From a virus (lineage: Duplodnaviria; Caudoviricetes), in the IMG/VR virus record IMGVR_UViG_3300034137_000033, positions 1 to 50,808 of that record: a stretch of 50,808 nucleotides of DNA. One strand, given 5' to 3'. The position numbers and the translations under genes are program-made. This document shows, piece by piece, positions 28,506 through 50,736 of this stretch; the first letter of the stretch is position 1; the number at the start of each line of letters is the position of its first letter. The notes beneath the pieces were generated by a model. The model ran no database searches and was not told the DNA's origin. It worked only from the letters and a program-made list of their open reading frames with translations.

Positions 28506-28507
28506 TC

Positions 28508-30242: not shown

Positions 30243-30259
30243 TCGCATGCGTTTACATA

Positions 30260-30281
30260 GGGGCCTAGCGGCCCCATTTTT
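30260..30281 (+). terminator. Intrinsic terminator after the tail tube gene
   Basis: GGGGCC-TAGC-GGCCCC-ATTTTT. Confidence 0.65.
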
Positions 30282-32296: not shown

Positions 32297-32401
32297 GGCC
32301 TCTTGCCGTTTGAGCTCAAAGCATTCTTGATCGTCGGCCCATCTGTGTCAATTGAAATGATATGATAGATATATAAAAATAATAATAAGAAAGGCCTTCG
32401 C

Positions 32402-32809: not shown

Positions 32810-33114
32810 AAGATTACGAAGCAGAGCAAAGGCGCATCGCGGATGCCGAAGAAGGTGACGAGCTAGATAGTTTCGTCAATGCCCTGGTTTCAAATTGCGA
32901 ATTCTTAATATCCAGAGGTCACAACACTTCAACCCTCAACCCATACAAATACTCAATCAGAAAGCTCTTCAAAATTGCTGTGGTTCAAAAAGAAATTGGC
33001 CGTGAGCAGCTATTCGGAGAGATGTATGGCAATCACTTGAGCCGAATATCGTGCGTTTCAGGGGATTCAAAACCGTTTAACGATCTGATGAAGAAAATTG
33101 CCGGAGAGCAATAA
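32755..33114 (+). other. Programmed -1 frameshift extension (GT chaperone)
   Basis: A8 run (CTA AAA AAA AGC) at 32755-32762. The -1 frame is open to TAA 33112-33114, 2 nt before the tape-measure ATG, and encodes LISRGH..NPYKYSIRKL. Confidence 0.8.
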
Positions 33115-33116
33115 GT

Positions 33117-35891
33117 ATGTCTAGTAATGCAGTAATTAACTTAATCCTCAAGGCTAAGGACGAAGCATCTAGCGTATTAAAAAGCACAGCAGCCAAGGTG
33201 ACAGCCCTGGTGACTGCGTTTGCCGGTGCTGTCGCGATTAAGGAAACCGTCCAGAGTCTGACCGAGCTTGATTTCGCAGCAAGGCGGCTTGGCGTCTCGA
33301 TGGAAGACCTGACGGCAGCTCAATACGCTGCATTCAGCGGAGCGAACGTTAATCCCGATCAGTTTCTGGACGCCCTAGATGAAGTTCGTATAAAGGTTGA
33401 AGAATTCAGCTCCATAGGTTCTGGTGGTGCCGTCGACTTTTTTGAAGTCCTGAATATATCTGCCGAGAAGTTCAACAAGCTAAATCCATTGCAGCAGTTG
33501 GACAAAATATCTGAAACGATCAAAGGGATGTCTGATAACTCAGCTTTCACTTTCCTCGATCAAATCGGATCTGACTCCCTGCGCAACCTGCTTCCAATTC
33601 TGCGTAATGGTGGAGCTGAGTTCAAAAGGCTTCGCGCCGAGGCTGAGCGTCTAAACCTGACCCTATCTGATGTCGACACGATTTCAGTCGCCCAACTTGG
33701 TAAATCCTTTTCGCAGCTCGAAAAAGTGGGTAGTACGGCTTTCAGCAAAATCGTCGCAGATATCGCTCCTGAGCTGACAGCTCTGACAGAGATGGTGACT
33801 GAAGCCATTGTTGGCATATCGAAAGACACGAAGGCTCCAGTTAAAGATATAGGGCAGACATTCCTTGATGTTTTTTCTGGTGTTGTCGCAAGCCTGAATT
33901 TTACTGTCCAGGTTAAAAATGCGTTCGTTGTCGCCTACAGCGCTATGAAAGAAGTTGTCTTGTCTTTCGCTACGTTCAACCTCAAGCAATTCCAGTTCCT
34001 CGACTCGATCTATACAAAAAGTGCCAACGGTCTCGTCAATATCTTTAGGGCGGCATTCGCAAAGAATCTGGAGTTCCTCAACTCCACATTCATTGAGCCG
34101 ATGAAGCAGTTCGCCAACACGTTCAACCTCGATGCAGCTGCCGGTCAGATCTCGAAATTCCAGGGTGTTCTTTCCGGGCTCCAGGAATCGTCAAGCAAAC
34201 CCATCCAAGTTGCGACAGAAAACAAAAGCATTGGCGAGACTATCAAGCAGCTTCAGGTTCTTAAAGACGAAGCGCATAAGTCTGGGCTAGAGAATTTCAA
34301 GATTTGGAATGATGGTGACTACCAGAAGCAAACCGAAGAAACGATGGCGAAAATCAAGACGAAGGTTCTTGAGAATGAAGACAAAACAAATGCTGAGTTA
34401 GCGAGACGAAAGGACAAGTCCGACCAGGATAAAATCGTAAAACTTCAAACCAAAAACGCCGCCGCATCAGCTCAAATCGCCGCAACACAAGCTCAGCTTC
34501 AAGCCGATCTCGCCAAGAAAGAGATCGACATCACCATCGCGAAGATCGACACGAAAAAACAGGTGGAACTGTCCGGCCTGCAGGAGCGTGTGCGTCTCGA
34601 AAACCTCTCGGCAGTCCAGATCGCTGATGAAAAATTTCGAATCGAAATGGAGGCTGCGAAGAAGCTCAGCGAGCAAAAAAAGAGATCCCTGGAAGTCGAT
34701 ATTATGGCCCTGCAGGGCAGCCTCGCGGGTCAACAAAAGCTTCTTGGCGCGACACAGAACCTGAACGACCGCCCAGGCATTCTCGCAACAATCAATCAAC
34801 TCGAAGCCGACATCACATCGAAGCGCGCAGACCAGGCAACCATCGGCGCAGAGCTCGTCAACCAATCCGCTTTGCTCAAAGCCGACCGTGCCGCAGAGGT
34901 TGGCCTGATCAGACAACAATTGGCTCAGATCAAGGCTGACGCGCAGATCGAGCTACTGGCCATCGGCGGCGACCAGTTCAGCGCTGACATCAAAAAGATC
35001 GAGGCTGACTTCAAGGACAGCATTAAAAACATGGAAAGCCTCGGGGAAGACTCGACGGCGATCCAGAAGCTCATCAGCGCGAAAAAAGCTCAAGCAGAGA
35101 TGCAGGAGATCGAGCGCCAGTACGCCAGTTTGAAGTCAAAGCTGGAGAAGCATCAGATCTCGCCACTCGACTACCTCGATCAAGCCAACAAGTTGGAAGA
35201 GCGCGGTACGAAGGCTGCTGAAGTCACTGGCAACCCCGCAGACCTGGACAAGGTGAAGAAGTCCGCCCAGGACGCTCGCGCCGAAGTTTTCGACCTGCAG
35301 ACGCTGACTGACAACGTGTCGAGCAGCCTGCAAGGTGGTCTGGAGGGTCTCTTCACGGACTTCATCTCAGGTACGAAATCGGCGAAAGAGGCGTTCGCTG
35401 ACTTTGCGCAGGGCGTGCTGAGTGAAGTCGCGAAGATCATTGCAAAGCTTCTCATCCAGCTTGCTATTCAGTCGATGCTTTCAGCCTATACGGGTGGTGC
35501 CAGTGGCGGTGCTGGTAGCCTAATGGGCATGGTCGGAGCTGGTGTAAAGCATGGAGGCGGCATGATTGGAGATTCTGGCCGCTCGCGGAATGTTCCATGG
35601 GGCGTCTTCGCGGATGCCCCGGAGTTCCACACTGGCGGAATCATCGGGCTCAAGCCTAACGACATCCCAATTATTGCCGAGCGTGGAGAAGAAATGTTAA
35701 CCGCTACCGATCCACGTCATCGCAATAATATAGGCAAGGGAAACAAAGGTCAGTCTGATCAAGCACCACGAGTTACTGTTAATAACATGATCGACTCAAT
35801 GTCTATCGCTAATGTTATGGAAGGTAGTCACGGCTCAGCGGCAATTATGAATGTGATTCGTGCGAACAGAAGTGAGATTAAAAACATGTGA
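33117..35891 (+). CDS. Tape measure protein
   Basis: 924 aa, Ala/Gln-rich helical, N-terminal LILKAKDEAS, C-terminal FHTGG..ERGEEML. Confidence 0.9.
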   Translation: MSSNAVINLILKAKDEASSVLKSTAAKVTALVTAFAGAVAIKETVQSLTELDFAARRLGVSMEDLTAAQYAAFSGANVNPDQFLDALDEVRIKVEEFSSIGSGGAVDFFEVLNISAEKFNKLNPLQQLDKISETIKGMSDNSAFTFLDQIGSDSLRNLLPILRNGGAEFKRLRAEAERLNLTLSDVDTISVAQLGKSFSQLEKVGSTAFSKIVADIAPELTALTEMVTEAIVGISKDTKAPVKDIGQTFLDVFSGVVASLNFTVQVKNAFVVAYSAMKEVVLSFATFNLKQFQFLDSIYTKSANGLVNIFRAAFAKNLEFLNSTFIEPMKQFANTFNLDAAAGQISKFQGVLSGLQESSSKPIQVATENKSIGETIKQLQVLKDEAHKSGLENFKIWNDGDYQKQTEETMAKIKTKVLENEDKTNAELARRKDKSDQDKIVKLQTKNAAASAQIAATQAQLQADLAKKEIDITIAKIDTKKQVELSGLQERVRLENLSAVQIADEKFRIEMEAAKKLSEQKKRSLEVDIMALQGSLAGQQKLLGATQNLNDRPGILATINQLEADITSKRADQATIGAELVNQSALLKADRAAEVGLIRQQLAQIKADAQIELLAIGGDQFSADIKKIEADFKDSIKNMESLGEDSTAIQKLISAKKAQAEMQEIERQYASLKSKLEKHQISPLDYLDQANKLEERGTKAAEVTGNPADLDKVKKSAQDARAEVFDLQTLTDNVSSSLQGGLEGLFTDFISGTKSAKEAFADFAQGVLSEVAKIIAKLLIQLAIQSMLSAYTGGASGGAGSLMGMVGAGVKHGGGMIGDSGRSRNVPWGVFADAPEFHTGGIIGLKPNDIPIIAERGEEMLTATDPRHRNNIGKGNKGQSDQAPRVTVNNMIDSMSIANVMEGSHGSAAIMNVIRANRSEIKNM

Positions 35892-35926
35892 TAATATATA
35901 GCTACTGACTAATAAGAATAAAAACA

Positions 35927-36799
35927 ATGACAGTAGCTATAAATACATATGCCAGTGGTGCTGCCTGGCTCTCATCTTTATGTGCTGATATTTTGCCGTC
36001 AAATGGTTGGTCGGTAGTCCGTGATACTTCTACAGAGAAAGTGTTGGGGTTGCCGGGTGATCAGGGGTTTGTGGCGTTTGTGATTGGCGCTGGTGTTGTT
36101 GAGATTCAGGCATTCCCTATTTTCGATCTTGATCAACCTGTCGCTTCGCAGGCTGGTGGATTTAGCTATGCGTACTCTCCGTTCCTACCGCGCTTTGTGC
36201 TGCCTGGTGGGTCGGTAAAGGCGTGGACGCTGGTGAATTCTCGCCGGTTGTGCGCAGTCATCAAGACTGGATCGGTTTTTTACTCCTTCTATGCAGGGCT
36301 GATCCTGCCTTTCGGCTCTAACAAGGTGTATCCATTTCCGTGTTTCATCGGTGGATCTGGTGAGCTCGGTGGGTCTAAGCAGTCTGCATATCCTTTCATG
36401 TCGGGTGGAAATCAGTATTGCCCTAAGGTCTGCTTGCCGACCGGCGCGTGGCAGATCGTGGGTGGTAATTCTGGCGGCAACAGTTCTTTTACGAACGAAT
36501 ATCCTTACTCGTATTCCTACGGCTACGTGCATCCTTTTGATGGGAAATTTCACAAGCTGCGCTCGAAGATCGACGGCAGTGCTGTCGTGTATCCGTCTCT
36601 GGTTGTTAGCTCAGGTCGTTCTTCTGATACCGACATGCTGAATGCCGATGATGGACAGTGGCTCGGTTACCTAGATGGTGTGTATGCGATACCACAGGGC
36701 CGCGTTGCTGAGTCTGTCATTGCCGTTGACGGTGTTGATTACCTTGTCGTTCCGAATGTGGCCAAGGCTTCAGAAACGTATGGGCTGAGGTTGGCATGA
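35927..36799 (+). CDS. Virion structural (tail) protein
   Basis: FYAGLILP, YPFPCFIGGS, GYLDGVY. Located in the tail operon. Confidence 0.6.
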   Translation: MTVAINTYASGAAWLSSLCADILPSNGWSVVRDTSTEKVLGLPGDQGFVAFVIGAGVVEIQAFPIFDLDQPVASQAGGFSYAYSPFLPRFVLPGGSVKAWTLVNSRRLCAVIKTGSVFYSFYAGLILPFGSNKVYPFPCFIGGSGELGGSKQSAYPFMSGGNQYCPKVCLPTGAWQIVGGNSGGNSSFTNEYPYSYSYGYVHPFDGKFHKLRSKIDGSAVVYPSLVVSSGRSSDTDMLNADDGQWLGYLDGVYAIPQGRVAESVIAVDGVDYLVVPNVAKASETYGLRLA

Positions 36800-37737
36800 A
36801 GCACTACTCATCTCGCTACACATCAGCCGATGATCTGGTTGCTGTCATCAAACAACGTCTTGAAATCGAGGGCTGGACTGTGAACCGGTACGGCGGGTTT
36901 GATGATCCGCGAATCGGCATCCAGTTGATGATCTCTCGCGGGGATGCGTTCTTTTGCCTTCGCAGCTTCGGAGAGTCGAGCCCGTACGTTGATTACTACT
37001 CCGCAAGCTCCATTGGACAGCATGGGGTGATCGTCTCTGCTGCAAGCGGCTACAGCAACAGTGCGGGCTTCATCAACCAGCCAGGCTTCCAGTCTTCGCC
37101 TAAGTGCTGCGTTGAGTCTGGGGAAGCCGCTGGGGTGTGCCATTTCTTTATCTCGGACGACCTGGTGATGTTCGTGACTGAGCGTGCCGGAGGTCTGTAT
37201 TCGTGCCTGTCGTTCGGCATGTTGCCGGTGTTATCCCCTGGCTCGGGCGGTCAGTTTGTGACGTCCACAGAGAGCTACCTTAGCAGCCAAAAACAACCAA
37301 TCTTCGCAAACGCATACGCGACGTTCGGCGTTCGTCTTGCTCACTCGGAATGGGCAGGCTGGGACGTTGGGGGGCGGACGTGGGGGCCGCTGAGGCCGAT
37401 TAGCCAGGGTGCTCTGATTGGCGTTCCGCATTTTCATCAGAACGGGACTGAGTACGGGAATGTCGGTGCTGTCGCTCGCGCTAAAGGCCTTGCGGGTGGT
37501 CTTGATGGCCTTGTCCCCATCACGCTGTTTACCGAGTTCGGTGGTGGATTTGCTCCATATGCCGAGCTACCTGAAATTTTCCTGGTGCCACTGGATTCGT
37601 TTGAGCCGGGTGCAGTGTACGAGCTCGGCCCGCATAAATTCATGGTCTTCCCGCAATACGTTAAATCGTTCCCTGTAGACAGGGATTACCCGCACTTCAA
37701 CCTGGGCATTGCAGTGCTGTTGGAGCCCGACGTATGA
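36796..37737 (+). CDS. Virion structural (tail) protein
   Basis: ATGA overlap, GWTV, LVPI.LF, FMVFP. Confidence 0.6.
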   Translation: MKHYSSRYTSADDLVAVIKQRLEIEGWTVNRYGGFDDPRIGIQLMISRGDAFFCLRSFGESSPYVDYYSASSIGQHGVIVSAASGYSNSAGFINQPGFQSSPKCCVESGEAAGVCHFFISDDLVMFVTERAGGLYSCLSFGMLPVLSPGSGGQFVTSTESYLSSQKQPIFANAYATFGVRLAHSEWAGWDVGGRTWGPLRPISQGALIGVPHFHQNGTEYGNVGAVARAKGLAGGLDGLVPITLFTEFGGGFAPYAELPEIFLVPLDSFEPGAVYELGPHKFMVFPQYVKSFPVDRDYPHFNLGIAVLLEPDV

Positions 37738-39248
37738 ACCAGATTGCAAAAAGCTTCGGCACGTTCTTCTTCAACAACGGTTTCCTGACCCCCGAGAGAA
37801 TCGATGCGGGAGTGGTTGTGCCTGGTGCAGAATTTTCGTTCGAGCTCTGGCATTCTTTCGTCGATCAGAAGGTATTAGCTGGTGTTACTCAAACCGGGGC
37901 ATTCGGGGTTGAGCTCAATGGTGCTACCTCGGGGGCTTTGTACGCATTTACCTCCTGTGCCTACGGCGTTTCTCTGAGCCAAGCAAATGGGCTTATCGAC
38001 TACACGGCAGCTTTCGACTTCAGAACCGGGTCTGCATACAGCTTCAACCTGACCGGTTCAATGGCACTCGTAATGCCCGAACGCATCGACTGGTCGACTC
38101 AGCCAGAGATGAGCATTCAGTACCTGACCGAGGTCATCGAGTCCTTTGATGGCACTGAGCAACGCATTGCTCTGCGTGACACACCACGATGCTCGCTTAG
38201 CTACCTGTACAGCATGACTGATGAGCAGCAGTACCGGTTTGATAACAAGATAGCTACGTCGACAGGTAGCATGATTGTGCCGCTGTGGCCGCTGCAGTGT
38301 CAGCTGTCACGTGCAGTGCAGCCTGGGGACACATCCGTTGTTTTGGAGGCGATCAACGCGCACGTGAGAACTTCCGACACGCTCCTGATTTCCGAGGGTG
38401 ATGAGTGTGAAGTGGTAAGCATCGAGTCCGTGGCCGGGGCAGTGGTGACCTTAAAACACCTGGCTAAGAAAACCTTCTCCACCAACGCGGTAGTTCTCCC
38501 AGCCCGAATCGCGTACCCAGCCGATGAGTCGAACTCCACATCGCTCCTGCGCGGCTTCGATCAGCATTCGATCACCTACGATTTGGACGAAACGCAGATC
38601 CGCAAGCCAATCCCGGTAGACGACTTCGAGTACCTCCATGGAAGGCCAATCCTCCCGTTTCGCCCAGACCGCTCGAAGGATGTTACGACGCAATACAATC
38701 GCCTGCGCGAAACGCTCGACCCTTTGATCGGAGCACGCAGCATCTACGACCGAGCCAGGGGGACGGTGAAAGTCCTTGGGCAAACCTTCACATTTTTCAG
38801 TGAAGCCGAACGCCAAAGATTCGAGGACTTCGCAGAACTCATGACCGGCGCACAGGGTGAGTTTTACATTGAGGGCCCCGGTCAAGCTTTCGAGCTCAGC
38901 GAAGACATTGTCGTAACAACATACAAAATCAGAATAAAAAATAGTGGATACACTAACTTCGCTAACAGCAACTCGCTCGCCCCAATAGCGGCAATAAAGC
39001 TGTATGATGGAACTACTATTTACAGAACAATCCTGAGCGTCACTGGCAACCCAGACGGCACAGAAACAATCACCACAAAAGAAATAACAGTCAGCCTCAA
39101 GACAACTGACATTGAAGCAATCGTACCGCTTTATCTTGCAAGATTTGACTCAGATGAATTTCGCTACATCTTCGACACCAGCGAAGTGTCGACTATAACT
39201 AAAAATATAAGACAACTACTCTATGCTGACTCTGCAATCGATACATAA
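37734..39248 (+). CDS. Tail protein (distal tail-like)
   Basis: IDWS, YLTEVIES.DGTEQRIALR.TPR, ARFDSD. Confidence 0.65.
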   Translation: MNQIAKSFGTFFFNNGFLTPERIDAGVVVPGAEFSFELWHSFVDQKVLAGVTQTGAFGVELNGATSGALYAFTSCAYGVSLSQANGLIDYTAAFDFRTGSAYSFNLTGSMALVMPERIDWSTQPEMSIQYLTEVIESFDGTEQRIALRDTPRCSLSYLYSMTDEQQYRFDNKIATSTGSMIVPLWPLQCQLSRAVQPGDTSVVLEAINAHVRTSDTLLISEGDECEVVSIESVAGAVVTLKHLAKKTFSTNAVVLPARIAYPADESNSTSLLRGFDQHSITYDLDETQIRKPIPVDDFEYLHGRPILPFRPDRSKDVTTQYNRLRETLDPLIGARSIYDRARGTVKVLGQTFTFFSEAERQRFEDFAELMTGAQGEFYIEGPGQAFELSEDIVVTTYKIRIKNSGYTNFANSNSLAPIAAIKLYDGTTIYRTILSVTGNPDGTETITTKEITVSLKTTDIEAIVPLYLARFDSDEFRYIFDTSEVSTITKNIRQLLYADSAIDT

Positions 39249-40023
39249 AGCGCTATCTTTGTCCCGTCCAATTGAGCTATTTCTTTTTGAGCACGGAACG
39301 GAGAAGTATGCTTACACCAGTGGTAGCAGGCAGCACTTGCACACGGATGGCCTGATCTACAAGCCACTGAGCCTCAAGCGCGGCAAAGTCCAACGAACAG
39401 CCGAAGACTACAAGAACCAGCTGACCTTGGACATGCCGGGCGACTCACCAGTACCACTGCTGTTCCGATCACATTTGCCGTCAAACCACGTGACCATCAA
39501 GGTTTTCCAAACGCAGCGAGACCTACCCGGTGAGTCGATCAACGTCTTCGCCGGAGAAGTCACGAGTGTAACCTGGAACAACTCCATCGCGTCCTTGGCC
39601 TGCAATCCTGTCTCCAGATCCCTCACACGCCAAGTGCTTCGCTGCGGCTACCAAAGTCAGTGTAATCACCACCTCTACGACAGCAGGTGCGGCCTTCAAA
39701 TCCAGGATTGGCAAGAAGACACCAAGGTAACGGCCATCAAAGACAACGGATTCACCGTGGAAGTAGCCAGCAAGCAAAACGAAGACGACTACTACATCAC
39801 AGGCTTGTTATCAAAGAATGGAAGTGACTTCCGCATGATCACATCCTGTTCCGGTAATGTATTTAAGCTTATGTCTCCGATTGATGGGCTCAAGGTAGGC
39901 GATGCTATTCAAGTCGCTAAAGGGTGCGATCACTCTGCGGCTGCGTGTCACGCATTTGATAACTTCGATAACTTTTTGGGATTCTTAACGATCCCTACTG
40001 ATAACCCGTTTCAAGTTTACTAA
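39223..40023 (+). CDS. Tail-tip hub protein (BR0599/DUF2163-like)
   Basis: C..HLYD..C, GCDHS...C..FDN..NFLGF..IP..NPF Cys motif. Confidence 0.85.
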   Translation: MLTLQSIHKALSLSRPIELFLFEHGTEKYAYTSGSRQHLHTDGLIYKPLSLKRGKVQRTAEDYKNQLTLDMPGDSPVPLLFRSHLPSNHVTIKVFQTQRDLPGESINVFAGEVTSVTWNNSIASLACNPVSRSLTRQVLRCGYQSQCNHHLYDSRCGLQIQDWQEDTKVTAIKDNGFTVEVASKQNEDDYYITGLLSKNGSDFRMITSCSGNVFKLMSPIDGLKVGDAIQVAKGCDHSAAACHAFDNFDNFLGFLTIPTDNPFQVY

Positions 40024-40054
40024 CCACTTAATAATAAGAATAAAAGGGTTTCCG

Positions 40055-42421
40055 ATGGTTTACTTCATGATTGCCTTGACGGTTCTGTCTATGTACTTGT
40101 CAATCAAGATGCAGAAGAAGCCTGAAAAGCCGACTGCGGCGGGGCTTGAGGACTTCAGCTTTCCAACTGCAGCAGAGCGACCAATTCCTGTCTTCGTGGG
40201 GACTAGGCGTATATCTGGGCCCAATGTGCTGTGGTACGGCGATCTTCTCACCAGAGCAATCAAGACAGTCACGAAGAGTATGTTTAGCTCCAAAAAAACG
40301 GTCACGGGATACCGCTACTACATGGGTGTCCAGCTCGGAATATGCCACGGCCCGGATGTCCAGCTCCGTGAGATCAAGTTCGGTGACGACGTGGCGTGGT
40401 CTGGACTAAGCACTGGTGGCCCGATCCAGATCGACAAGCCTGCTCTCTTCGGTGGTGACACGAACGGTTCTGGTGGAATCTCCGGAACGATGAGGTTTTA
40501 TCCAGGTGCTCTGACCCAAGCCCCAAACGAGTATTTGGTCAGCAAGGTTGGTTCAGATCTCGTGTCTGCGATACGTGGTGTCAGCTACTGCGTCATGGAA
40601 GGCATGTACATCGGGAACTCATCGAGCCCGCAAGCCACAAGCTTCGTCGTCAGCAGGTTCCCCAAATCACCAGACGACCGCTTCAGCGATTACGAGCAGA
40701 TCGGCCTTGACGCAAACCCCGCATTTTTCATATACGAGATGATCACTCACGGCCTTTACGGTGCTGATCTCGGCTATTCGTCTATTGACCTGGATTCGTT
40801 CACTTCCGCCGCTAAAACCCTTTTTGATGAAGGGCTAGGCATATCAGCAGTCATTGACTCATCAACGACCGCTGGTGACGTGATCAATGACGTCAAACGC
40901 GTGATCCAGGGCTCATTGCAAACAGATCCTGCAACCGGCGCACTGAAGCTCAGGCTGATCAGAAACGACTACATCGTCGACGAGCTGCCATTGCTCGATC
41001 AGTCGAACATCAAGAATCTCTCCGGGTTCACACGCGGCTCTCTCGACACAGCAATCACCGAGGTGAAGCTCAAGTACACAAGCATCGACGACGACTTCAC
41101 AGAGCGTACAGTGATCGCACAGAACAACGCCTTGCGAATGCACAAAGGGGATAGCGACGGACAGGTCGTCCAGATGCCCATGATCAGCACCCGCGAAACG
41201 GCAGCGAAGATCGTGATGAGGGAAATGGCCAGCGCATCGGTTCCTTTGGCAACCTGTACCGCCGAGTGCAATCGCGGCCCCGCACACACCGAAGTCGGTG
41301 ACGTCGTTCGCCTGAGCTGGCCAGCCGAAGGCGTCGACAAATTAGTCATGCGCGTGACCGGCATCGACCTTGGCGCTCCTCAGGATGGTTCTGTGCGCCT
41401 GACCCTCGTCCAAGATGTCTTCGGTGTCTTCATGAGCGTCTACGCCGATGGCTCCGAGCGTCAGTGGACGAAACCCACCTTCAAGGCTACTGACATCACT
41501 CGCTTCGACATCATTGATGCACCGACCATTTTGACGACAAGCCAAACAACCGGGAGCGTGCTTGTCGTTGCGGAAAATCCTGGCGTTGCGTTGGACTACC
41601 AGCTTCAGGTGAAGGGTGGTGTCGATAGCGGCTACATTGATGCTGGAGCGATGCCTTTCACGCCGTTTTTCTCGACTACGAAAGCCATGGGTACTGGCTG
41701 GACTGATGTGAGCGTCGTGCTTTCAGGGGCATCTGCAGAGTTGTCGTCGATCACGGCTGATGAGGTTCGTCAGGGGCTTGGCTTGATGCTGATCGTCAGT
41801 GCCCTTGGGAAAGAATGGATCTCGTATCAGAACGCTGTGGCTGGCAATTCAACGACTGTAAATCTTGGTCTGGTCAACCGTGGGCTATTCAACACGAAGC
41901 CTTTGGCGCACCCAGCAGGAGCTCGCGCATGGGCTGTTTCCGAGGGTTTCGGGGTTACTGACTGGCAGTATGCGAAGAGTGAGTCTGTGTCGCTCAGGAT
42001 GCTTCCGAGGACTCAGACCGGGGTGCTCGATGTCGATGATGCTGTCGTTCATTCGTATAGCGTTGCAGGGGCGAACCTGGCTCCTTGGGCACCAGGGCGT
42101 GTGCGTGTGAATGGCGTCGAAGGTGGTCAGATCTCGGGTGTTGCAACTGTGACCTGGAGGAAGCGTGATGGATCATTGCCTACTGTGATGTTCTACGGTG
42201 ACGACGAAAGCCGGGTGAGTGATGCGGCGTACCAGGTGGTTGTGAAATCAGGGAGTACGGTCGTCAAAACTGTCAGTGGGATTACTGGCGAATCGTGGTC
42301 GTTTACTGATGAGATGGCGCTGAATGGCGGGGCTTACTACAGCAGCCTGGCTTTCGAGATCAGTGCTCAAAAGCCAGGGTTTACGGATTCAGTCGCCGCT
42401 AGGGTAAGCGTGACCCGGTGA
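40055..42421 (+). CDS. Tail tip/central fibre protein (Phage-tail_3/GTA-like)
   Basis: FPTA..RPIPVFVGT, GPNVLWYGD, GICHGP, ANPA..IYE, LIRNDY, RG..NT.P..H.AG. Confidence 0.85.
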   Translation: MVYFMIALTVLSMYLSIKMQKKPEKPTAAGLEDFSFPTAAERPIPVFVGTRRISGPNVLWYGDLLTRAIKTVTKSMFSSKKTVTGYRYYMGVQLGICHGPDVQLREIKFGDDVAWSGLSTGGPIQIDKPALFGGDTNGSGGISGTMRFYPGALTQAPNEYLVSKVGSDLVSAIRGVSYCVMEGMYIGNSSSPQATSFVVSRFPKSPDDRFSDYEQIGLDANPAFFIYEMITHGLYGADLGYSSIDLDSFTSAAKTLFDEGLGISAVIDSSTTAGDVINDVKRVIQGSLQTDPATGALKLRLIRNDYIVDELPLLDQSNIKNLSGFTRGSLDTAITEVKLKYTSIDDDFTERTVIAQNNALRMHKGDSDGQVVQMPMISTRETAAKIVMREMASASVPLATCTAECNRGPAHTEVGDVVRLSWPAEGVDKLVMRVTGIDLGAPQDGSVRLTLVQDVFGVFMSVYADGSERQWTKPTFKATDITRFDIIDAPTILTTSQTTGSVLVVAENPGVALDYQLQVKGGVDSGYIDAGAMPFTPFFSTTKAMGTGWTDVSVVLSGASAELSSITADEVRQGLGLMLIVSALGKEWISYQNAVAGNSTTVNLGLVNRGLFNTKPLAHPAGARAWAVSEGFGVTDWQYAKSESVSLRMLPRTQTGVLDVDDAVVHSYSVAGANLAPWAPGRVRVNGVEGGQISGVATVTWRKRDGSLPTVMFYGDDESRVSDAAYQVVVKSGSTVVKTVSGITGESWSFTDEMALNGGAYYSSLAFEISAQKPGFTDSVAARVSVTR

Positions 42422-42423: not shown

Positions 42424-43083
42424 TTAGTTCTTGACCAGAAACCTAGCTTTCTCACCATCAGAATCAGAGCGAAGCTTCATCACCATTCGCTGGATAAATG
42501 GGATATGACTGTCGCGATCTAGATCCGCAAAGACCATTCCCTGTCCGTTCAGGTTGTCCATTACGATCTGAATACTTTTCGAGTTTAAAATGCCCAAGTG
42601 TATCGTCTTGCAGTCAACATCGTCTTTTTGGACTTTGTAGAAAGTCATGTGATGTGCAGACTTATAATTTGTCTCCCAGGCCACATGCTCAGTTTTCATG
42701 CCCGCAAGGAAAAGTGGTTGCTGAACCCCAGAGTCGGATTTTCTGATTTCGCAGAGACCACCTTGAGAATCCTCCATCATCATGCCGGGATCAATTCCGT
42801 ACTGCTTCAAGACGGTTGTATCGCCGGTAAACTTTATTCGAAGTCCTGACTTTGAGATATCGTTGACTCTGTCGTAGATGAAACCCTTGTCGATTATATC
42901 TACCTTGATTTTTGCATGGAGTGGGGTTAGCAGCTTTGCTCCATTATTTTGAGTGTAGAGATACACGTTGCCAGTGAATGTGTCGGCCATTAGCGTCCTG
43001 TTATAGCCAAGAAAAATCTCTCCGATAACCCAGAACACACACATAAAAGCAAAGAACTTAGCGAATGTTTTACGCCGCAGCAT
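42424..43083 (-). CDS. Membrane-anchored hypothetical protein
   Basis: N-terminal TM helix, GAGGAG RBS, overlaps the upstream gene, AT-rich. Confidence 0.6.
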   Translation of the reverse strand: MLRRKTFAKFFAFMCVFWVIGEIFLGYNRTLMADTFTGNVYLYTQNNGAKLLTPLHAKIKVDIIDKGFIYDRVNDISKSGLRIKFTGDTTVLKQYGIDPGMMMEDSQGGLCEIRKSDSGVQQPLFLAGMKTEHVAWETNYKSAHHMTFYKVQKDDVDCKTIHLGILNSKSIQIVMDNLNGQGMVFADLDRDSHIPFIQRMVMKLRSDSDGEKARFLVKN

Positions 43084-43411
43084 GTTCTAACTCCTCAGCT
43101 TCACGCTTATAAAATGGGGGCTCAACATTAAGCAGTGCAGCGCCAAGGAGGAATACACCAACATTTTCCCAGATCATCTCACCCATGAAGGGTAGTAATG
43201 TGCTAGAGCCAGGTAGGATCGTTGCCATTATCGCAATTGGATATCCGAGCAAGTCCATAACTAGAGATGGGGCATGATAGCCGTGCAGCAAATTGCGTGC
43301 AGAAATTACTGTCTCGCTGAATGTTTGAAGCTCAGTCGAAGACGCGAGTAGAAAACCTGGCGCGACGACGCTAAACATAAATACTGCCCACACCACTCGA
43401 TAGATACGCAT
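43070..43411 (-). CDS. Small integral membrane protein
   Basis: 2-3 hydrophobic segments, GGGAG RBS. Confidence 0.6.
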   Translation of the reverse strand: MRIYRVVWAVFMFSVVAPGFLLASSTELQTFSETVISARNLLHGYHAPSLVMDLLGYPIAIMATILPGSSTLLPFMGEMIWENVGVFLLGAALLNVEPPFYKREAEELEHAAA

Positions 43412-43479
43412 ACAACTCCCTTGCACTGTAAGTTTGCATCAATGCTACGTGTAGGCAACTAGCGTGAAAAGCGTTTTTA

Positions 43480-44460
43480 CTACGCAGTTACATACCCAAT
43501 TGTGGTTTTTCTAATAACTCCCAAACTCTCTGCGTTCCTGAAAATCTGACCAGCTCGGAGGTTCCCGATCCGTGAGTTTTTCGCGAATTCCTTGAGCTTC
43601 ACCGGCGTGCCGGGTGCCAAGGTTTTTGCGTGAAAAACCAGGGTTTTCAGGATTTCTGCGTTGGAATCCGGCAGCGTTTCTCCAGTTTTCGGCGTTTCTG
43701 GCGTTTCCGTCACCTCCTGTGGCATGCCAGTCACCTTAACTTCCGATGATGGCGTTTCGCTAGCTTCTGAGGCTACAACACCCGCGCTAGAGCGTCCAGA
43801 GCTTCTGACGCCAGCTAGGATGAGTGCCGGAACTATCTCCAGGGCCATGGCGAAGCCGAGGCACAGAAACTGCGCAAGCAGCGGAGGCAGGCTCGACGCT
43901 TTAGCAACACCAGATTTGATGTGCGCGATCTCCAGGGAGCCTTCATTAAGGCGTGCTAGTGCCTGAGCGCGCTGAGCTGCCGCACGAGAGCTTACTGACT
44001 CTTCAAGCTCCAAGGCCTTGGAAACCATTCCACGCGCCCGCAGATCATTAGCCTGTAACCCCGCATCGGCGATCTCTTTATCAAGGTGTGAGATCAGTGC
44101 TGAGTCTTTCTGAGCCATTGCAATCAATGCATTAACACGGTCAGTAGTCATTACTTCGTGAGTTGCTTTGCTGACGCTAATCGAAGTCATGAGTCGATCA
44201 TAAGTGGCCCAACCGCTAACACCCGAAAGCATCAGGGCGCATGCAATTGTCAGCACTGCACTTGTGCCACGCAAAACACGAATGGCAACAGGCCACGCCA
44301 GATACTTGAAAATATCCAGGAGCACGGCTGCAGACGCAAACAGAAGCGCCAGGTTCTTGTCTTCAATCAATGCGTACATTGCAAAGGCAACGGAAATTGC
44401 AGTTACGCTAGACAAAAGGAATGCGATTGCGACAAGTAATGCCGACAGCTTTTTGCTCAT
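43480..44460 (-). CDS. Membrane protein with coiled coil and C-terminal FtsK-gamma-like winged helix
   Basis: 3 N-terminal TMs, coiled coil, a 4th TM, ETP-rich linker, then RIGNLRAGQIFRNAESLGVI. Confidence 0.6.
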   Translation of the reverse strand: MSKKLSALLVAIAFLLSSVTAISVAFAMYALIEDKNLALLFASAAVLLDIFKYLAWPVAIRVLRGTSAVLTIACALMLSGVSGWATYDRLMTSISVSKATHEVMTTDRVNALIAMAQKDSALISHLDKEIADAGLQANDLRARGMVSKALELEESVSSRAAAQRAQALARLNEGSLEIAHIKSGVAKASSLPPLLAQFLCLGFAMALEIVPALILAGVRSSGRSSAGVVASEASETPSSEVKVTGMPQEVTETPETPKTGETLPDSNAEILKTLVFHAKTLAPGTPVKLKEFAKNSRIGNLRAGQIFRNAESLGVIRKTTIGYVTA

Positions 44461-44573
44461 CTTGAGCTCCGAAATCTCTGTATAAGTCCATTATATAAGG
44501 GGTTCCAGGCAGTGCAATAGCATAGCTGGGCTATTTGACATCAAACTACCTTCATATAGATTGCATTTATTTA

Positions 44574-44602
44574 TTGAGTGGACGAGTCCAATTCAATATT
44601 AT
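44574..44602 (+). promoter_or_regulatory. sigma70-like promoter
   Basis: TTGAGT-17 bp-TATTAT. Confidence 0.55.
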
Positions 44603-44635
44603 GTTTATAAATCCCGAACAAAAAGGAAAACAATA

Positions 44636-45088
44636 ATGGGCATCAAGGTATCGATTAATCACCAAGCAATTGCTGAAGCGCTTATTAAAAGCGGCGATCT
44701 TCATCGCGATGGTTGCGGATGCGGACTTTCATATGAGCACGATGAGGCTCAGGAACTTCAGGAGTTAATTGATATTAGTCTGGATGTAATCGAAGTGTTC
44801 GGCGAAGCCGGCTTACGCGCACTCGTGAATCAAGCGGAGAAACGTGCAGACGAATTGGATCTGAAAGTTCGTGCAGCGGAAGCGCAGGCTAAGGCGGAAG
44901 CCGAAAAAACCTTGGGTGAGGCTCAGCTGTCGGAGTACGACCAATTGGCCCTCATGAGCGCTGTTGGCAGTATCGGTGGGGATATCGACGCATACGACCT
45001 CGCGAAGACGCTGGTGCGCCGCAAGGTCTATTCAGTCGCCGAAATTATGCGTCTCTCAAGCGTGCAGCTGAGGCATCTACTCTCGTAA
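44636..45088 (+). CDS. Hypothetical protein
   Basis: 150 aa, AAGGA RBS, own promoter. Confidence 0.6.
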   Translation: MGIKVSINHQAIAEALIKSGDLHRDGCGCGLSYEHDEAQELQELIDISLDVIEVFGEAGLRALVNQAEKRADELDLKVRAAEAQAKAEAEKTLGEAQLSEYDQLALMSAVGSIGGDIDAYDLAKTLVRRKVYSVAEIMRLSSVQLRHLLS

Positions 45089-45502
45089 AAACGACTCAGC
45101 CAGCAAGGTGGCCAGGGGCGCAGGTTTCTGGCCTTTTTCGAATGACGCCACTAGAAATGTTTTGCCGGTACGGTCGCGAAGCACCATGCCTTCTTTGACC
45201 AGGCGTGCTTCGACGTGCATCTCTGCGAAAAGCCCGAAAGCAGTCGTGTCGCCGTCCACTTGGCCATAGATCCAGCCAGCTTCGTCGGCTACGACTTCAC
45301 TCAGAACATGGTCAGACGGTCGGAAAGCTCTCTTGATCATCCTGCCGACCCTCCTGGCACCCTTGGCCATCATCACGAATAACCATATCGCCGGGATAAG
45401 TGGAATCGAAATCAGGATTCCACCCCACACGTTGATCTGATGCACAACCCAGCGCAGCAGGCTCCACAATGTCCGTAATGGAACCATCCAGTTGACCCTC
45501 AC
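45077..45502 (-). CDS. Hypothetical membrane protein
   Basis: One TM, GTGA overlap with the upstream ORF. Confidence 0.55.
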   Translation of the reverse strand: MRVNWMVPLRTLWSLLRWVVHQINVWGGILISIPLIPAIWLFVMMAKGARRVGRMIKRAFRPSDHVLSEVVADEAGWIYGQVDGDTTAFGLFAEMHVEARLVKEGMVLRDRTGKTFLVASFEKGQKPAPLATLLAESFLRE

Positions 45503-45810
45503 GATTGATCTCCCTCAGTTGTGGCGCTTGCTGGCTTGTCGTGCAGAAAGCTCAGGGCAAGCAGAGCGTGTATAGATTCAAACAGCGAACCAGCCTTATC
45601 ATCGAGGCTCAGTATCATGTACTCGTGCCCCTGGACGTCTTTGACGCCAATACCCATGTCATCAATCCAAGCACTGTGTATGTGGAAGGTCTGATGTAGC
45701 TCACCGTCAAATTCCTTCCCATCAACAACTCCATATGTAAGCCCGGCAACATCAATGGCATTGCCCTTATGCAAAACATATGCTTCATAAATCAATGCGC
45801 AACGAGCCAT
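45499..45810 (-). CDS. Hypothetical protein
   Basis: 103 aa, GGAGG RBS. Confidence 0.65.
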   Translation of the reverse strand: MARCALIYEAYVLHKGNAIDVAGLTYGVVDGKEFDGELHQTFHIHSAWIDDMGIGVKDVQGHEYMILSLDDKAGSLFESIHALLALSFLHDKPASATTEGDQS

Positions 45811-45903
45811 TTAACCTCCATTACATATATGCTGATTGTACCGCTTGCAAGGTTTGCCAGCAAACACTAGCATTGGAATTGTGGAATTAAGGAGCTGCAT
45901 GCT

Positions 45904-46563
45904 ATGAAACGTTTCAGAAGTATTTTGAATGCGCAGCCCGTAGCTAAGTTGTATCTAGAAAATAAGTCAGTTGACGATAGATTTAAGAAATCTGGTGCTA
46001 CAGATGAATTGACAAGATTTGCATACACACTGGCACTTCGTGGCGTGCATCCGAATAGCCTTGATTCTATTGTTGACTTCAGACTTGAAGACGTTGTTGG
46101 CCTCCTGCTGGCTGATAGAGAAACTACCCAAGGTCTCAAGCATGAGTTCGATGAGTTTCGGGTTGTTTGGCGCAGGCTTTACGACCGTGAGCGAAACCGT
46201 CGGGATGCGATTTGGCGACTAGAGTTGATCGAGCCGGGATCTAAGTCGGCTGAGCCATTCCTGGAATTACTGTCGGCAATCAGGGATGCAGACGAGACAG
46301 ATCCCATTGGGGAGGCGTTTGCGCTGGGTATTCATGAGGTCGTGGCGATGGTGCCCGTCACCTCAGTACCTGGGTGGATTGACTACGTCGCTCACGATGA
46401 TATTCCAGAACCCTGGTGCGAACGTTTCCAGCAAGCTAGCGCGGGCTCGACAGCTACGATCCGTGGGAATTATGCGTACGATTGGGAGAAGTTTGTACGG
46501 CTTTGGGAGGTAGAAATGGACATGATAGCTAAACACGAGCTGGCACGTGGGGAGCCGCTATGA
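45904..46563 (+). CDS. Hypothetical protein
   Basis: 219 aa, AAGGAG RBS, ATGA-coupled to the exonuclease gene. Confidence 0.65.
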   Translation: MKRFRSILNAQPVAKLYLENKSVDDRFKKSGATDELTRFAYTLALRGVHPNSLDSIVDFRLEDVVGLLLADRETTQGLKHEFDEFRVVWRRLYDRERNRRDAIWRLELIEPGSKSAEPFLELLSAIRDADETDPIGEAFALGIHEVVAMVPVTSVPGWIDYVAHDDIPEPWCERFQQASAGSTATIRGNYAYDWEKFVRLWEVEMDMIAKHELARGEPL

Positions 46564-47024
46564 AAATTGTTGTGGACTGCGAATTCACACAGCTCAATGC
46601 TACCGCCAGGCTCATCTCTATGGCGCTGGTTGCTGAAGACGGTCAAGAGCTCTACTTCGAGCTTAGCGATAATTGCGTCCTAGCTGACTGCAGTGATTTC
46701 GTTGTTGAGAGGGTGTTGCCACAGCTAACTGGAAGTAGCGCCTCAATTTCACTGGACGCTGCAAGGCAGGAATTGTTGGCGTTCCTGGGTCGCTTCGATA
46801 ATGCCGAAATCATGTCTGACGCGCCCGCATGGGACTGGGAGTTCTTCTGTGATATCGCTTACCACAACGGAAAATGGCCGATTAATGTATCCAATAGACC
46901 ACTCAATTTGATTGACATATTCAATGATAAAGACGTGCCGGGTGAAGATGCGCCCGAGCTTCCGCATCATGCGTTGCTCGACGCCAGATTACTAATGAAC
47001 TACTACAAGCGCCTTCTCAAATAG
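46560..47024 (+). CDS. DEDDh 3'-5' exoribonuclease (Rv2179c/DUF5051-like)
   Basis: VVDCEFT, LISMALV, SDAPAWDW, HHALLDAR. Confidence 0.85.
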   Translation: MKIVVDCEFTQLNATARLISMALVAEDGQELYFELSDNCVLADCSDFVVERVLPQLTGSSASISLDAARQELLAFLGRFDNAEIMSDAPAWDWEFFCDIAYHNGKWPINVSNRPLNLIDIFNDKDVPGEDAPELPHHALLDARLLMNYYKRLLK

Positions 47025-48171
47025 CTAGCTCTAGTTCGTCGGGAATATTTAATTGCTGTCCAGGTACATACTCAATGTACTTTCGCTTGAGCCTGCACTC
47101 CTGAGGCTTGAATAGCGCGTCAAATATAGCATCGATGAGCTCCAGAATTTCCTTGATCATCTTTTGAACTTCGTAATCCCTTGCTGTGAACTTGATATAG
47201 ATTGGCTTTCTTCTGCGCCCGCTGACTGCGATGAATTCATAGTAGTAGATTCTAGCTCTTTCTTGGTCTTCGCTATCTCTTCTTGCAATTTCATTCTGAA
47301 GTTCACGAATGGTTTCGGGGTCATAATGTATTCCTTCCTGTGTAGTTAGTTTGTGCCAAGTCAATCTTGAGCGCTTGAGCTGTCTACCACTTATATGTTT
47401 GCCGTCAAACTCGAAACTGATCCCCTTTGGCTGGCCTTCATCATTGAGCGTGAGGTTGATGTAGACCTTCTGCTTTCTCAGGGCTCTTACGAAGTCGAAC
47501 ATGTCGCCCTGGGTTGCGTTTGTGGCTTCGATAGCACCCGCGATCTTCGCAATCATTTTGTGCTTCAGGGGCAAGTCGTTGTCGCGGACTGAAGCTTGGA
47601 GTTCAGCATGGGTGATCGAGACGCCCCAGGTGTCTTTCGGCCTTGGTGCTTTGGTGAGTCCGAAGCGGTCTTCGATCTCAGACACTGAGTCCATGCTGAC
47701 GCTTCGCTCATTACTATCTTTGACCATTGAGAACGTGTCATCGAGACGGATGCGGTTTGCGACGATGTGAACGTGCTGATGATCTTTGTCTTGATGCATT
47801 ACGGCGACGTACTGAGTCGTTTCGTCGAAGCCTAGGTCTGTCATGTACTTTGTGACCGCCTGACGCCATTGCGGGGTTGTCAGGGACTCTCCGGGGCGCA
47901 GGGACAGCATTGCGTGGAAGACCGGTTTAATGGCCTTCTCAGAGTCGATGGCGAAGCGCCTGAGCGTCTCAACCTGGTCGAATTCGCGGATCATCTCCGA
48001 AAGGTCTGACTCGTTGCCCTGCAGGACGCCTGGCAGTGGGTCTTTGCTCATAGTGTTGAAGCTGATCGTCCGGATGCCAGAGATCTCATGGTCGTGCTTC
48101 GTGCAGCCGAAAATGTAGCGGATTCGGTTTTTGAAAGAGCCTGAGGACTTCGGGAAAATCTTGCCGATCAT
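47017..48171 (-). CDS. Conjugative relaxase (HUH, MOBP-like)
   Basis: N-terminal MIGKI..GSF..RIRYI (catalytic Tyr), PVFHAMLSLRPGE, HQDKDHQHVHIVANR. Confidence 0.93.
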   Translation of the reverse strand: MIGKIFPKSSGSFKNRIRYIFGCTKHDHEISGIRTISFNTMSKDPLPGVLQGNESDLSEMIREFDQVETLRRFAIDSEKAIKPVFHAMLSLRPGESLTTPQWRQAVTKYMTDLGFDETTQYVAVMHQDKDHQHVHIVANRIRLDDTFSMVKDSNERSVSMDSVSEIEDRFGLTKAPRPKDTWGVSITHAELQASVRDNDLPLKHKMIAKIAGAIEATNATQGDMFDFVRALRKQKVYINLTLNDEGQPKGISFEFDGKHISGRQLKRSRLTWHKLTTQEGIHYDPETIRELQNEIARRDSEDQERARIYYYEFIAVSGRRRKPIYIKFTARDYEVQKMIKEILELIDAIFDALFKPQECRLKRKYIEYVPGQQLNIPDELELAI

Positions 48172-48461
48172 TTGACACCCCCCAGGTTCACTTGGGCGAT
48201 GTACTTAACTTTTTCCAGGAGCTCACTGCCGGGCCGGTCGGCGTTTATCATAGATGCGAGATTCATGAGCTCCCTGGCAATCTGAACAACGTCTTGGCTG
48301 ACCTTGGGCTTCACCTGACCGTTAGCAACGAAGTCTCTGATAAACGCGCCTGCGGACTTGTAGCCTGCTTCGGCGATCTTGGCATTCAATGTGTCGAGCT
48401 CAGTCTTATTGAGCCTTAGGGTAATGCGGGATTCTTTGTTTTGCTTCTCAATAGTTTTCAT
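48168..48461 (-). CDS. mobC: MobC-type RHH relaxosome accessory protein
   Basis: ITLRLNKTELDTL..AG..SAGAFIRD, ELMNLASMIN. ATGA overlap with the relaxase. Confidence 0.85.
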   Translation of the reverse strand: MKTIEKQNKESRITLRLNKTELDTLNAKIAEAGYKSAGAFIRDFVANGQVKPKVSQDVVQIARELMNLASMINADRPGSELLEKVKYIAQVNLGGVK

Positions 48462-48499
48462 CTTGGGTCACCTTTTATTATTTTTATTCTGAGCCCTCA

Positions 48500-48565
48500 A
48501 CGCAACACCCGAAGGGATGTGAGTATCTAGCCTTACTTGTCTGACATAGACACAACTGGCTAAAA
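48500..48565. promoter_or_regulatory. Candidate oriT
   Basis: Directly upstream of mobC. Inverted repeat TGTCT-GACAT-AGACA (48538-48552) followed by CAACTGGCTA, resembling ColE1-type nic CTGG^CTTA. Confidence 0.5.
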
Positions 48566-48651
48566 AGAAGCTCTAGACTCATTATGCAAATGGAGCTTTA
48601 GGTGGTTCTAGTGCTTTTGCTAATTATTTTGATTTATTTGTTTGTATAACT

Positions 48652-48809
48652 AAACTTTCGCAAGGTGTGAATGCGAAATCGCAGCATGGGAGTGCGAAAT
48701 CACAAAGCACTAAAGCGAATTCGCACTCATGCACTGCGATAATCACAAGGCATGACTGTGGTTTCGCTATGACTGTGTGTGAATTCGCAAGTGCATGGTG
48801 TGAAATTGA
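48652..48809. repeat. Phased array of palindromic decamers GYGAAWTCRC (21-bp period), iteron-like
   Basis: Units start at 48673, 48694, 48715, 48736, 48758, 48779 and 48800, plus a half-site at 48652. AT-rich tract at 48621-48655. Confidence 0.75.
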
Positions 48810-48816
48810 GTAAGAG

Positions 48817-50269: not shown

Positions 50270-50354
50270 GCCTCGATGGTGAAATTGGTAGACACATCGC
50301 ACTTAAAATGCGCCGCCGAAAGGTGTACCGGTTCGACTCCGGTTCGAGGCACCA
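50270..50354 (+). tRNA. Prophage-encoded intact tRNA-Leu(UAA)
   Basis: Acceptor GCCTCGA/TCGAGGC, D-stem GTG/CAC, anticodon stem CGCA/TGCG with loop CTTAAAA, variable arm CGCC-GAAA-GGTG, T-arm ACCGG-TTCGACT-CCGGT, encoded ACCA end. Confidence 0.97.
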
Positions 50355-50476: not shown

Positions 50477-50508
50477 CCTTGGTAGCTCTTGGGAGCCGCT
50501 TGGTAGCT
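50477..50508 (+). repeat. Putative integrase arm-type sites (attR arm)
   Basis: TTGGTAGCT (50479), TTGGGAGCC (50489), TTGGTAGCT (50500). They match 259-278. Confidence 0.7.
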
Positions 50509-50681: not shown

Positions 50682-50690
50682 GACTTAAAA
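50682..50690 (+). repeat. attR core GACTTAAAA
   Basis: Direct repeat of 119-127. Confidence 0.9.
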
Positions 50691-50736
50691 TCCCTCGTTC
50701 TAGGACGTGCCGGTTCGACCCCGGCTCGGGGCACCA
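50682..50736 (+). pseudogene. 3' half of host tRNA-Leu(UAA)
   Basis: TCCCT pairs with AGGGA (116-120), T-arm GCCGG-TTCGACC-CCGGC, TCGGGGC-ACCA pairs with GCCCCGA (89-95). Confidence 0.95.

Follow-up and report, generated by a model that had tools for sequence, protein, structure and literature searches.

The stretch of DNA analysed here (the window, 50,808 nucleotides) is an isolated IMG/VR provirus record, IMGVR_UViG_3300034137_000033 (Duplodnaviria; Caudoviricetes), and its positions 128-50681 are one integrated temperate siphovirus-like prophage of 50.6 kb from a Pseudomonas host. Beside its integrase gene this prophage carries a mobilisation (mob) cassette that consists of a relaxase gene, a gene for a NikA-like accessory protein (nikA) and a candidate origin of transfer (oriT). 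We are confident that the cassette is a native and ancient part of the prophage lineage; the architecture and the nativeness are both well supported. The best reading of its role, suggested by the families to which its proteins belong and given a probability of about 0.55, is that it serves helper-dependent conjugative mobilisation of the excised circle, as in islands. Mobilisation is preferred because of the family matches, the conserved catalytic residues, the conserved block in cis and the independence of the cassette from virion genes, and because the phage has a separate module for replication.

In the model that we infer, which extends to every biochemical step, to the helper and to transfer itself, integrase (Int) and excisionase (Xis) would excise the entire 50.6-kb element as a circle with the order tail, relaxase, nikA, oriT, int, tRNA, attP, xis and replication genes. 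NikA would bind iterons and an inverted repeat and recruit the relaxase, whose residue Tyr19 would cut one strand beside a conserved hairpin and stay on the 5' end. The coupling protein and type IV pore of a co-resident conjugative plasmid or integrative and conjugative element (ICE) would export this strand to a recipient. There it would be recircularised and copied, and the phage genome would integrate or turn lytic. Such an element would have two routes of spread, virions and helper-dependent conjugation without a phage receptor.

The prophage encodes a relaxase with conserved catalytic residues

The relaxase matched the Pfam family Relaxase (PF03432) over residues 53-172 with 85.1 bits (cut-off 24.6, E 7e-24). 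Its best match in NCBIfam was TraI/MobA(P) (NF041893), which covered residues 1-181 with 74.9 bits and an E-value of 6e-21. An alignment was built from 15 relaxases, phage-borne and island-borne, that share 35-94% identity. All 15 keep Tyr19 (within R-x-x-Y-x-F-G) and the four residues of an H-x-D-x(4)-H-x-H motif (H126, D128, H133 and H135), so the first-pass annotation, which had reported intact tyrosine and HxH motifs, is upheld by both the PF03432 match and this invariance. From its position, Tyr19 would be the catalytic tyrosine. His86, Asn139 and Arg140 are likewise invariant, and conservation extends to a long C-terminal stretch at approximately residues 246-284.

An AlphaFold2 model of the relaxase built on this homologue alignment had a mean predicted local distance difference test score (pLDDT) of 83. 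When the model was compared with the PDB using Foldseek, the top match was the relaxase domain of MobA from R1162 (2ns6; probability 1.00, E 2e-3), with the TraI proteins of F and pCU1 placed below it. The nearest plasmid relaxases are 27-30% identical and include those of small plasmids with adjoining MobC genes annotated by PGAP. Over the 531 matching records in PLSDB, the database predictions were mobilizable for 186, conjugative for 150 and non-mobilizable for 195. The protein was filed under the MOBP/MOBQ superfamily, with no finer type assigned.

A NikA-like partner and a candidate oriT adjoin the relaxase gene

Directly upstream of the relaxase gene, and overlapping its start by 4 nt (translationally coupled), lies nikA. 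Its product matched the Pfam family NikA-like (PF21983) with 36.3 bits (cut-off 27, E 6e-9) and RHH_1 weakly. These were the only Pfam families returned at E <= 0.01, with no MobC profile among them; in NCBIfam the protein matched MbpA with 19.7 bits, against a cut-off of 90. The operon described in the first-pass annotation as mobC-relaxase is thus present as a coupled pair, and the name MobC is loose because Pfam returned a NikA-like ribbon-helix-helix (RHH) protein instead. A simple sigma-70 promoter scan upstream of nikA (48462-48816) returned none.

The spacer between nikA and the integrase gene is 355 bp long and has two parts, a conserved block and an iteron array. The block (48501-48561, approximately 60 nt) is almost unchanged in 23 distinct sequences, while the relaxases that adjoin it are 35-94% identical (15 aligned). 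It contains an inverted repeat, TGTCT-N5-AGACA, at 48538-48552, with a variable spacer, and a hairpin, ACAYCC-loop-GGGTGT, at 48505-48520, in which the loop varies and 99.3% of cells are paired. Within the stem an A-U pair is replaced on both sides by U-G in three sequences, and a U-G pair by C-G in eight. The hairpin is followed by an invariant TTGCG (48501-48504), after which similarity ends. Both hairpin and TTGCG are intact in the prophage of one Pseudomonas genome (G028) despite a relaxase that is just 35-42% identical.

The iteron array, made of palindromic TGCGAWTTCGCA-like units, occupies a constant position relative to the relaxase gene in relatives with unrelated integrases. Because this position is kept whichever integrase is present, the array belongs to the mob cassette. 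The layout of the spacer is that expected of an oriT with accessory-protein sites, which makes it a good oriT candidate on sequence grounds, with the position of the nick a guess. What the earlier reading had called a nic-like site upstream of the operon can be described as a candidate oriT that contains a hairpin-TTGCG block conserved in 23 sequences.

The A-rich leader of nikA, which resembles that of the phage genes, had also been offered as a sign that the cassette is native. The motif AATAATAA (at most one mismatch) does occur within 40 nt upstream of 15 of the 68 called open reading frames (ORFs), nikA included, compared with 1.6% of random 40-nt windows. The same leader also precedes the island-borne copies of nikA, and for this reason it is no proof of nativeness by itself. 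In its extended form, AATAATAA(G/A)A, the motif lies 8-25 nt before ORF starts, mostly those of the first genes of gene blocks (for example 5975-5991, 9354-9370, 18910-18926, 20278-20292, 32375-32391, 40030-40046 and 48472-48490). The motif may enhance translation together with a weak Shine-Dalgarno sequence, or may belong to a phage promoter.

The cassette lies within one att-bounded prophage

The 9-bp att core GACTTAAAA is present in exactly two copies in the window, at 119-127 and 50682-50690. ARAGORN, run on a scripted join of the adjoining halves (89-127 and 50691-50736), recognised an 85-nt tRNA-Leu(taa). The core at both junctions and the tRNA formed by the joined halves indicate that the host tRNA-Leu(UAA) gene was split in the anticodon loop and not rebuilt. 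Homology between the window and a relative (L001) reaches position 50737 and then ends. The G+C content of the window is approximately 0.50, and that of the host flanks of relatives 0.58-0.66. The repeat CTTGGTAGCT, a candidate arm-type site of the integrase, has three exact copies in the window (258, 50478 and 50499), all adjoining the att cores. ORFs of the window were scanned with PHROGs and Pfam, and in these scans the sole integrase was found at the right end and the sole excisionase at the left end. The mob cassette next to int is thus enclosed by att boundaries, as had been claimed at first reading, and the absence of an internal core copy speaks against a separate element with att sites of its own.

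The prophage also carries a complete tRNA of its own (50270-50354). ARAGORN labelled it Phe(aaa). Its 5' half is 86% identical to positions 85-127, and its acceptor and anticodon stems differ from those of the host copy. By alignment it reads as Leu(UAA), given this identity and a CTTAAAA loop common to both. A lysogen would rely on this prophage-borne tRNA-Leu unless the host has another copy.

The cassette is native to a Pseudomonas prophage lineage

The relaxase is common in Pseudomonas, with 424 matches, the best 120 of them at 81% identity or higher. Twenty loci anchored on the relaxase at >=65% identity were compared with the window proteins by tblastn. In ten of them the J-like tail gene is found downstream together with its adjoining genes, in six it is not (L005, L011, L013, L014, L016 and L018), and four are too short to judge. 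From the opposite direction, 20 IMG/VR loci were anchored on the tail. Seven of these end early; all 13 that could be evaluated carry nikA and/or the relaxase gene just past the J-like gene. Five of the 13 contigs also occur in the relaxase-anchored set, and the other eight belong to a second clade at just 55-58% identity.

A similar pattern was observed in 401 sampled genomes of Pseudomonas species, of which 17 contain the relaxase and three the J-like tail protein (E <= 1e-60); in all three a relaxase gene lies 0.7-1.9 kb from the tail gene. The same three prophages are syntenic with the window over their full length at 25-70% identity, and relaxase and tail remain linked at identities as low as 36% (tail) and 42% (relaxase). 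Relatives that keep mob and virion genes together, on which the first-pass annotation had staked its proposal, were thus recovered from both collections (13 of 13 evaluable IMG/VR loci and 3 of 3 genomes).

One of these relatives, in genome G235, is a 45-kb prophage inserted in the 5' end of dusA, with the mob cassette and a different tyrosine integrase at its opposite ends. Each end of this prophage encodes the same DusA peptide of 14 residues; the integrase adjoins the rebuilt dusA, and the displaced N-terminal DusA peptide lies by the mob cassette (L031 4274-4639 and L033 8567-10791). Because the cassette and int are placed at opposite ends, a separate int-mob element is impossible in G235. 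In G028, where L034-L036 were joined into 60 kb, a complete tRNA-Arg(CCT) gene stands on either side of the prophage (732-806 and 44891-44965 of the joined sequence), perhaps a similar habit of bringing its own tRNA to another target.

These relatives bear on whether the int-mob segment could be a separate integrative mobilisable element (IME) that lies in tandem with an unrelated prophage by accretion. Phage-ICE accretion tandems are known in streptococci, according to the available text of PMC13651849, and within the window the block from the tRNA through int, oriT and nikA to the relaxase gene is 75-85% identical to a non-phage island (L016). Moreover, integrase modules have been exchanged among relatives, with a homology breakpoint at approximately 48703-48740. 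A tandem would nevertheless have to be reconciled with an excisionase at the far end of the prophage and with a relaxase gene that adjoins the tail genes of all relatives that could be evaluated, even at 36% tail identity. We give this explanation a very slight chance, and it was rejected on the absence of a third att core, the single integrase found by the PHROG and Pfam scans and the arrangement in G235.

The same cassette is found on non-phage islands

Among the 17 relaxase-bearing genomes, 10 have a relaxase that is at least 55% identical, and only in G235 and G223 does a tail gene adjoin it. A third, G258, has two 31%-identical tail matches far from the relaxase gene, and the remaining seven have none. 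Five records also lack a portal gene. On these islands the cassette is located at the edge of a low-G+C island, beside an integrase, and is 78-90% identical to the phage cassette. The low-G+C island of L013 is just ~10 kb and may be a decaying copy.

To describe their content, island ORFs were scanned with PHROGs and Pfam. The best 25 of 40 PHROG families from 53 ORFs comprise reductases, transposases, phosphatases, regulators and a helicase. A further PHROG scan of 60 ORFs (25 families) gave no terminase, portal or capsid, and one weak match to a tail protein family, phrog_7043, in L005 (E 3e-15). Among the best 25 of 39 Pfam families from 105 ORFs were PglZ, ABC-3C components, AbiEii, HEPN/RES, Multiubiquitin, an MvaT-like silencer, and sugar and redox enzymes; the Pfam-scanned islands with defence genes are L014, L016, L018, L023, L025, L026, L028 and L030. 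The matches listed include no pore or coupling protein, and the tail-family match in L005 is the only virion one among them. From their gene content, the cassette-bearing islands look like mobilisable defence and cargo islands.

Phage-borne and island-borne sequences interleave in a 23-row tree of relaxases, with at least three changes of context on well-supported branches and two phage-island sister pairs at 100/100. The label of phage/IME hybrid given in the first-pass annotation is fair as a description, because non-phage islands use the same cassette. The oriT-like block is nearly identical in the phage and island copies, which makes recognition across elements in trans plausible. A relaxase that acts on other elements, either by mobilising co-resident islands with the same oriT or by hindering incoming plasmids, is nonetheless distinctly improbable as the explanation of the cassette: the phage has a cis site next to its mob genes, the arrangement of self-mobilising elements, and there is no evidence for plasmid interference. 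Possibly, trans action on sister islands would add to self-mobilisation and not replace it.

Transfer and rolling-circle replication as possible roles of the cassette

The main rival to mobilisation is that the relaxase, NikA and the hairpin start rolling-circle replication of the excised circle, for copy number or for packaging concatemers, and have no part in transfer. The combination of an HUH nickase, a hairpin origin and an RHH partner fits rolling-circle initiators as well, and the array of 21-bp iterons looks origin-like. The families matched by the relaxase profile are, however, all conjugative or mobilisation families and not Rep, and its best fold match is MobA. While the islands with the cassette have no other recognisable replication gene among the matches listed, the phage has origin-binding helicase and primase-like genes of its own, and its cassette is found outside that replication module, in the lysogeny and accessory end by int. 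We consider a purely replicative cassette unlikely; replication and transfer roles can also coexist.

Several observations weigh against mobilisation. Excision of a phage normally leads to lysis of the donor, which would compete with mating, and the relaxases of some ICEs, such as ICEBs1, also start rolling-circle replication. No helper element is known, the window being an isolated provirus record. In the family comparisons, the relaxase score of 74.9 bits lies far below the TraI_MobP equivalog cut-off of 250, which marks the protein as a relative and not an equivalog; the fold match to 2ns6 is weak, with a template modelling (TM) score of 0.27 by query and 0.48 by target; and sequence searches of the PDB with the relaxase (phmmer) and with the NikA-like protein gave no meaningful match. 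The candidate oriT had no blastn match in 72,556 plasmids. Its hairpin tolerates G-T pairs, a both-sided change is seen at one pair only, and the covariation is modest. Finally, in L011 (582-1741) and L013 (10001-11155) the relaxase gene is split into two frames next to identical oriT blocks.

The prophage retains a full set of virion genes

The features of the window are listed in Table 1. All hallmark virion genes are open frames, namely those for the small and large terminase subunits (TerS and TerL), portal, scaffold, major head protein, adaptor, tail tube, tape measure, distal tail, endolysin and spanin. The first-pass description as a complete prophage holds at the level of gene content, with packaging, head, tail, lysis and integration genes all open. 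It had also stated that the element lacks a coupling protein and a type IV secretion system (T4SS), and neither was found among the window ORFs scanned with PHROGs and Pfam, two large ORFs having no match of any kind. The same scans gave no partition or plasmid replication gene.

No cultured relative was found. Megablast of positions 26000-50700 against 50,697 phage records returned no match, the best tail identity to these records is approximately 33%, and the relaxase had only nine matches in them, all below 40% identity and with coverage of at most 53%. It is conceivable that the element no longer makes infectious particles and is either a phage-derived island moved by mobilisation alone or the bearer of a relaxase that is itself a relic. 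Besides the lack of a cultured relative, this explanation could draw on the minus-strand cargo blocks that interrupt the gene order, on two ORFs of 594 and 455 amino acids (21872-23656 and 23679-25046) with no PHROG or Pfam family match, and on islands that share the cassette and a few accessory genes and could be decayed versions. It is opposed by the open hallmark genes and by their synteny at 25-70% identity in three distant genomes, a conservation that calls for purifying selection on virion function, and we regard it as improbable.

The two ORFs without a family match are located between the major head gene and the lysis cassette, and the longer one has glycine-rich internal repeats. A minus-strand insert occupies 30280-32296 within the head and tail block. 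Cargo genes encode a protein with a CoiA-like nuclease domain (10697-11455), a UmuD/UmuC-like pair (phrog_1268 DNA polymerase and phrog_811; 12717-14418), an AbiJ-like abortive-infection protein with a DUF7014/HEPN-like C-terminus (17522-18424) and a histidine phosphatase (31332-31955). The accessory region between the tail and mob genes includes an RNase AS-like exonuclease and varies in content among relatives. It also encodes a 326-amino acid protein (43480-44460, minus strand) that has membrane segments at its N-terminus, a coiled coil in its middle part and a winged-helix-turn-helix-like tail. This protein is 44-94% conserved in phage relatives, where it lies between the tail and mob genes; an Atlas look-up returned only unnamed or 'SecY'-labelled clusters and DUF7343, and was uninformative.

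Table 1. Coordinates of features in the 50,808-nt window
Feature	Position	Strand	Evidence or remark
attL: 5' half of host tRNA-Leu(UAA) through the anticodon loop	89-127	+	Ends in core GACTTAAAA at 119-127
CTTGGTAGCT repeat, candidate integrase arm-type site, P' arm	258-267	+	Putative function
Excisionase / AlpA-like DNA-binding protein, 62 aa	519-707	-	phrog_66 excisionase, E 3e-8
Replication module: primase-like protein	1024-2322	-	PHROG primase match
Replication module: origin-binding SF2 helicase	2699-5056	+	PHROG helicase; Pfam Herpes_ori_bp, DEAD
RuvC-like resolvase, small terminase, large terminase, portal	5998-10690	+	phrog_1770, phrog_4102, phrog_979/2, phrog_145
Head scaffold and major head protein	19372-21468	+	phrog_206; phrog_283, E 8e-65
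Endolysin and Rz-like spanin	26124-27043	+	phrog_7, E 9e-57; phrog_13, E 5e-34
Head morphogenesis, adaptor, tail completion, major tail, chaperone, tape measure, distal tail, J-like tail protein	27040-42421	+	PHROG
Accessory region between tail and mob genes, eight ORFs	42424-47024		Pfam: only weak Rv2179c-like/RNase_AS
Relaxase, HUH type, MOBP/MOBQ superfamily, 384 aa	47017-48171	-	Pfam PF03432
NikA-like ribbon-helix-helix relaxosome accessory protein, 97 aa	48168-48461	-	Pfam PF21983
Conserved non-coding block, candidate oriT core	48501-48561	-	nikA-proximal
Palindromic TGCGAWTTCGCA-like iterons, candidate NikA binding array	48656-48789		21-bp spacing
Tyrosine integrase, 459 aa	48817-50196	-	Pfam Phage_integrase, 28.9 bits (cut-off 27.1); phrog_1, E 4e-31
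Element's own complete tRNA	50270-50354	+	Rfam, 54.6 bits; 330 bp inside attR
Two CTTGGTAGCT repeats, P arm	50478-50508	+	Copies at 50478 and 50499
attR: core GACTTAAAA and 3' half of host tRNA-Leu	50682-50736	+	Core at 50682-50690

Discussion

Among known relaxases, MobA of R1162/RSF1010 (MOBQ) offers the best structural match to the N-terminal domain of the phage protein and shares with it a single N-terminal tyrosine and a three-histidine motif. The two differ in that the phage relaxase has no detectable sequence match in the PDB and no primase fusion, is encoded beside a NikA-like accessory protein and has a different yet conserved C-terminal domain (approximately residues 190-384). In the oriT of R1162 a hairpin is likewise followed by a short conserved stretch, a likeness that was not used as evidence. 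RP4 TraI (MOBP) is represented by the best NCBIfam match, NF041893, from which the relaxase departs both in length (384 residues against a profile of 502 positions) and in score (74.9 against 250).

Elements of the iMOB type, defined in the accessible part of PMC11389934 as integrative mobilisable elements with their own relaxase, resemble the prophage in having an integrase, tRNA att sites, a relaxase with an RHH protein, an adjoining oriT-like candidate and no mating-pore genes. They differ in cargo, which here is a full set of genes for virions, lysis, packaging and replication, in a combination that has been kept throughout a deep phage lineage. We rate the element as an IME with a whole phage as cargo or, equally, as a phage that is also an IME. 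It shares with phage-plasmids the combination of phage and plasmid-type functions, and differs from them in that it is chromosomally integrated in a split tRNA gene and carries a relaxosome without a pore. Work on SMphages (Huang et al. 2023) is reportedly cited for prophages that ICEs may mobilise. In streptococci, where Phi1207.3 is called a conjugative prophage in the available text of PMC4260502, prophages are similarly moved via the conjugative route of another element. The streptococcal phage-ICE tandems, as far as the accessible text of PMC13651849 describes them, arise by accretion and contain two integrases, with MOBP1 relaxases and the T4SS supplied by the ICE partner; in the prophage described here, by contrast, the relaxase and its cis site are phage-encoded and no ICE is attached.

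A conjugative phage-plasmid fusion is reported in a preprint (bioRxiv 10.1101/2025.03.14.643293), and a single-cell preprint describes viral operational taxonomic units (vOTUs) with members annotated with relaxases, T4SS and other plasmid hallmarks. The latter preprint also warns that hybrids, conjugative phage-plasmids for example, can be wrongly sorted into the viruses by binary classifiers. In the literature searched, supplements not covered, no account was found of a lineage of chromosomal prophages that carry a relaxase and oriT of their own.

More tentatively, and with somewhat less than an even chance, a widespread lineage of temperate Pseudomonas siphoviruses may have retained its own relaxosome despite deep divergence and may use the pores of co-resident plasmids or ICEs as a second, receptor-independent entry into new hosts, with the cassette repeatedly exchanged with defence islands. 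If this is true, phages and mobilisable islands would form one gene-sharing, possibly cross-mobilising network, in which phage and island evolution would be linked via a common cassette. The host range of a phage is usually taken to be set by its receptor, and conjugation is usually ascribed to plasmids and ICEs. Contig sorters that decide between 'virus' and 'plasmid/IME' would misfile such elements. Temperate phages would gain a route past receptor loss and adsorption blocks, and this phage lineage would be a hitcher on conjugative elements while still a virus.

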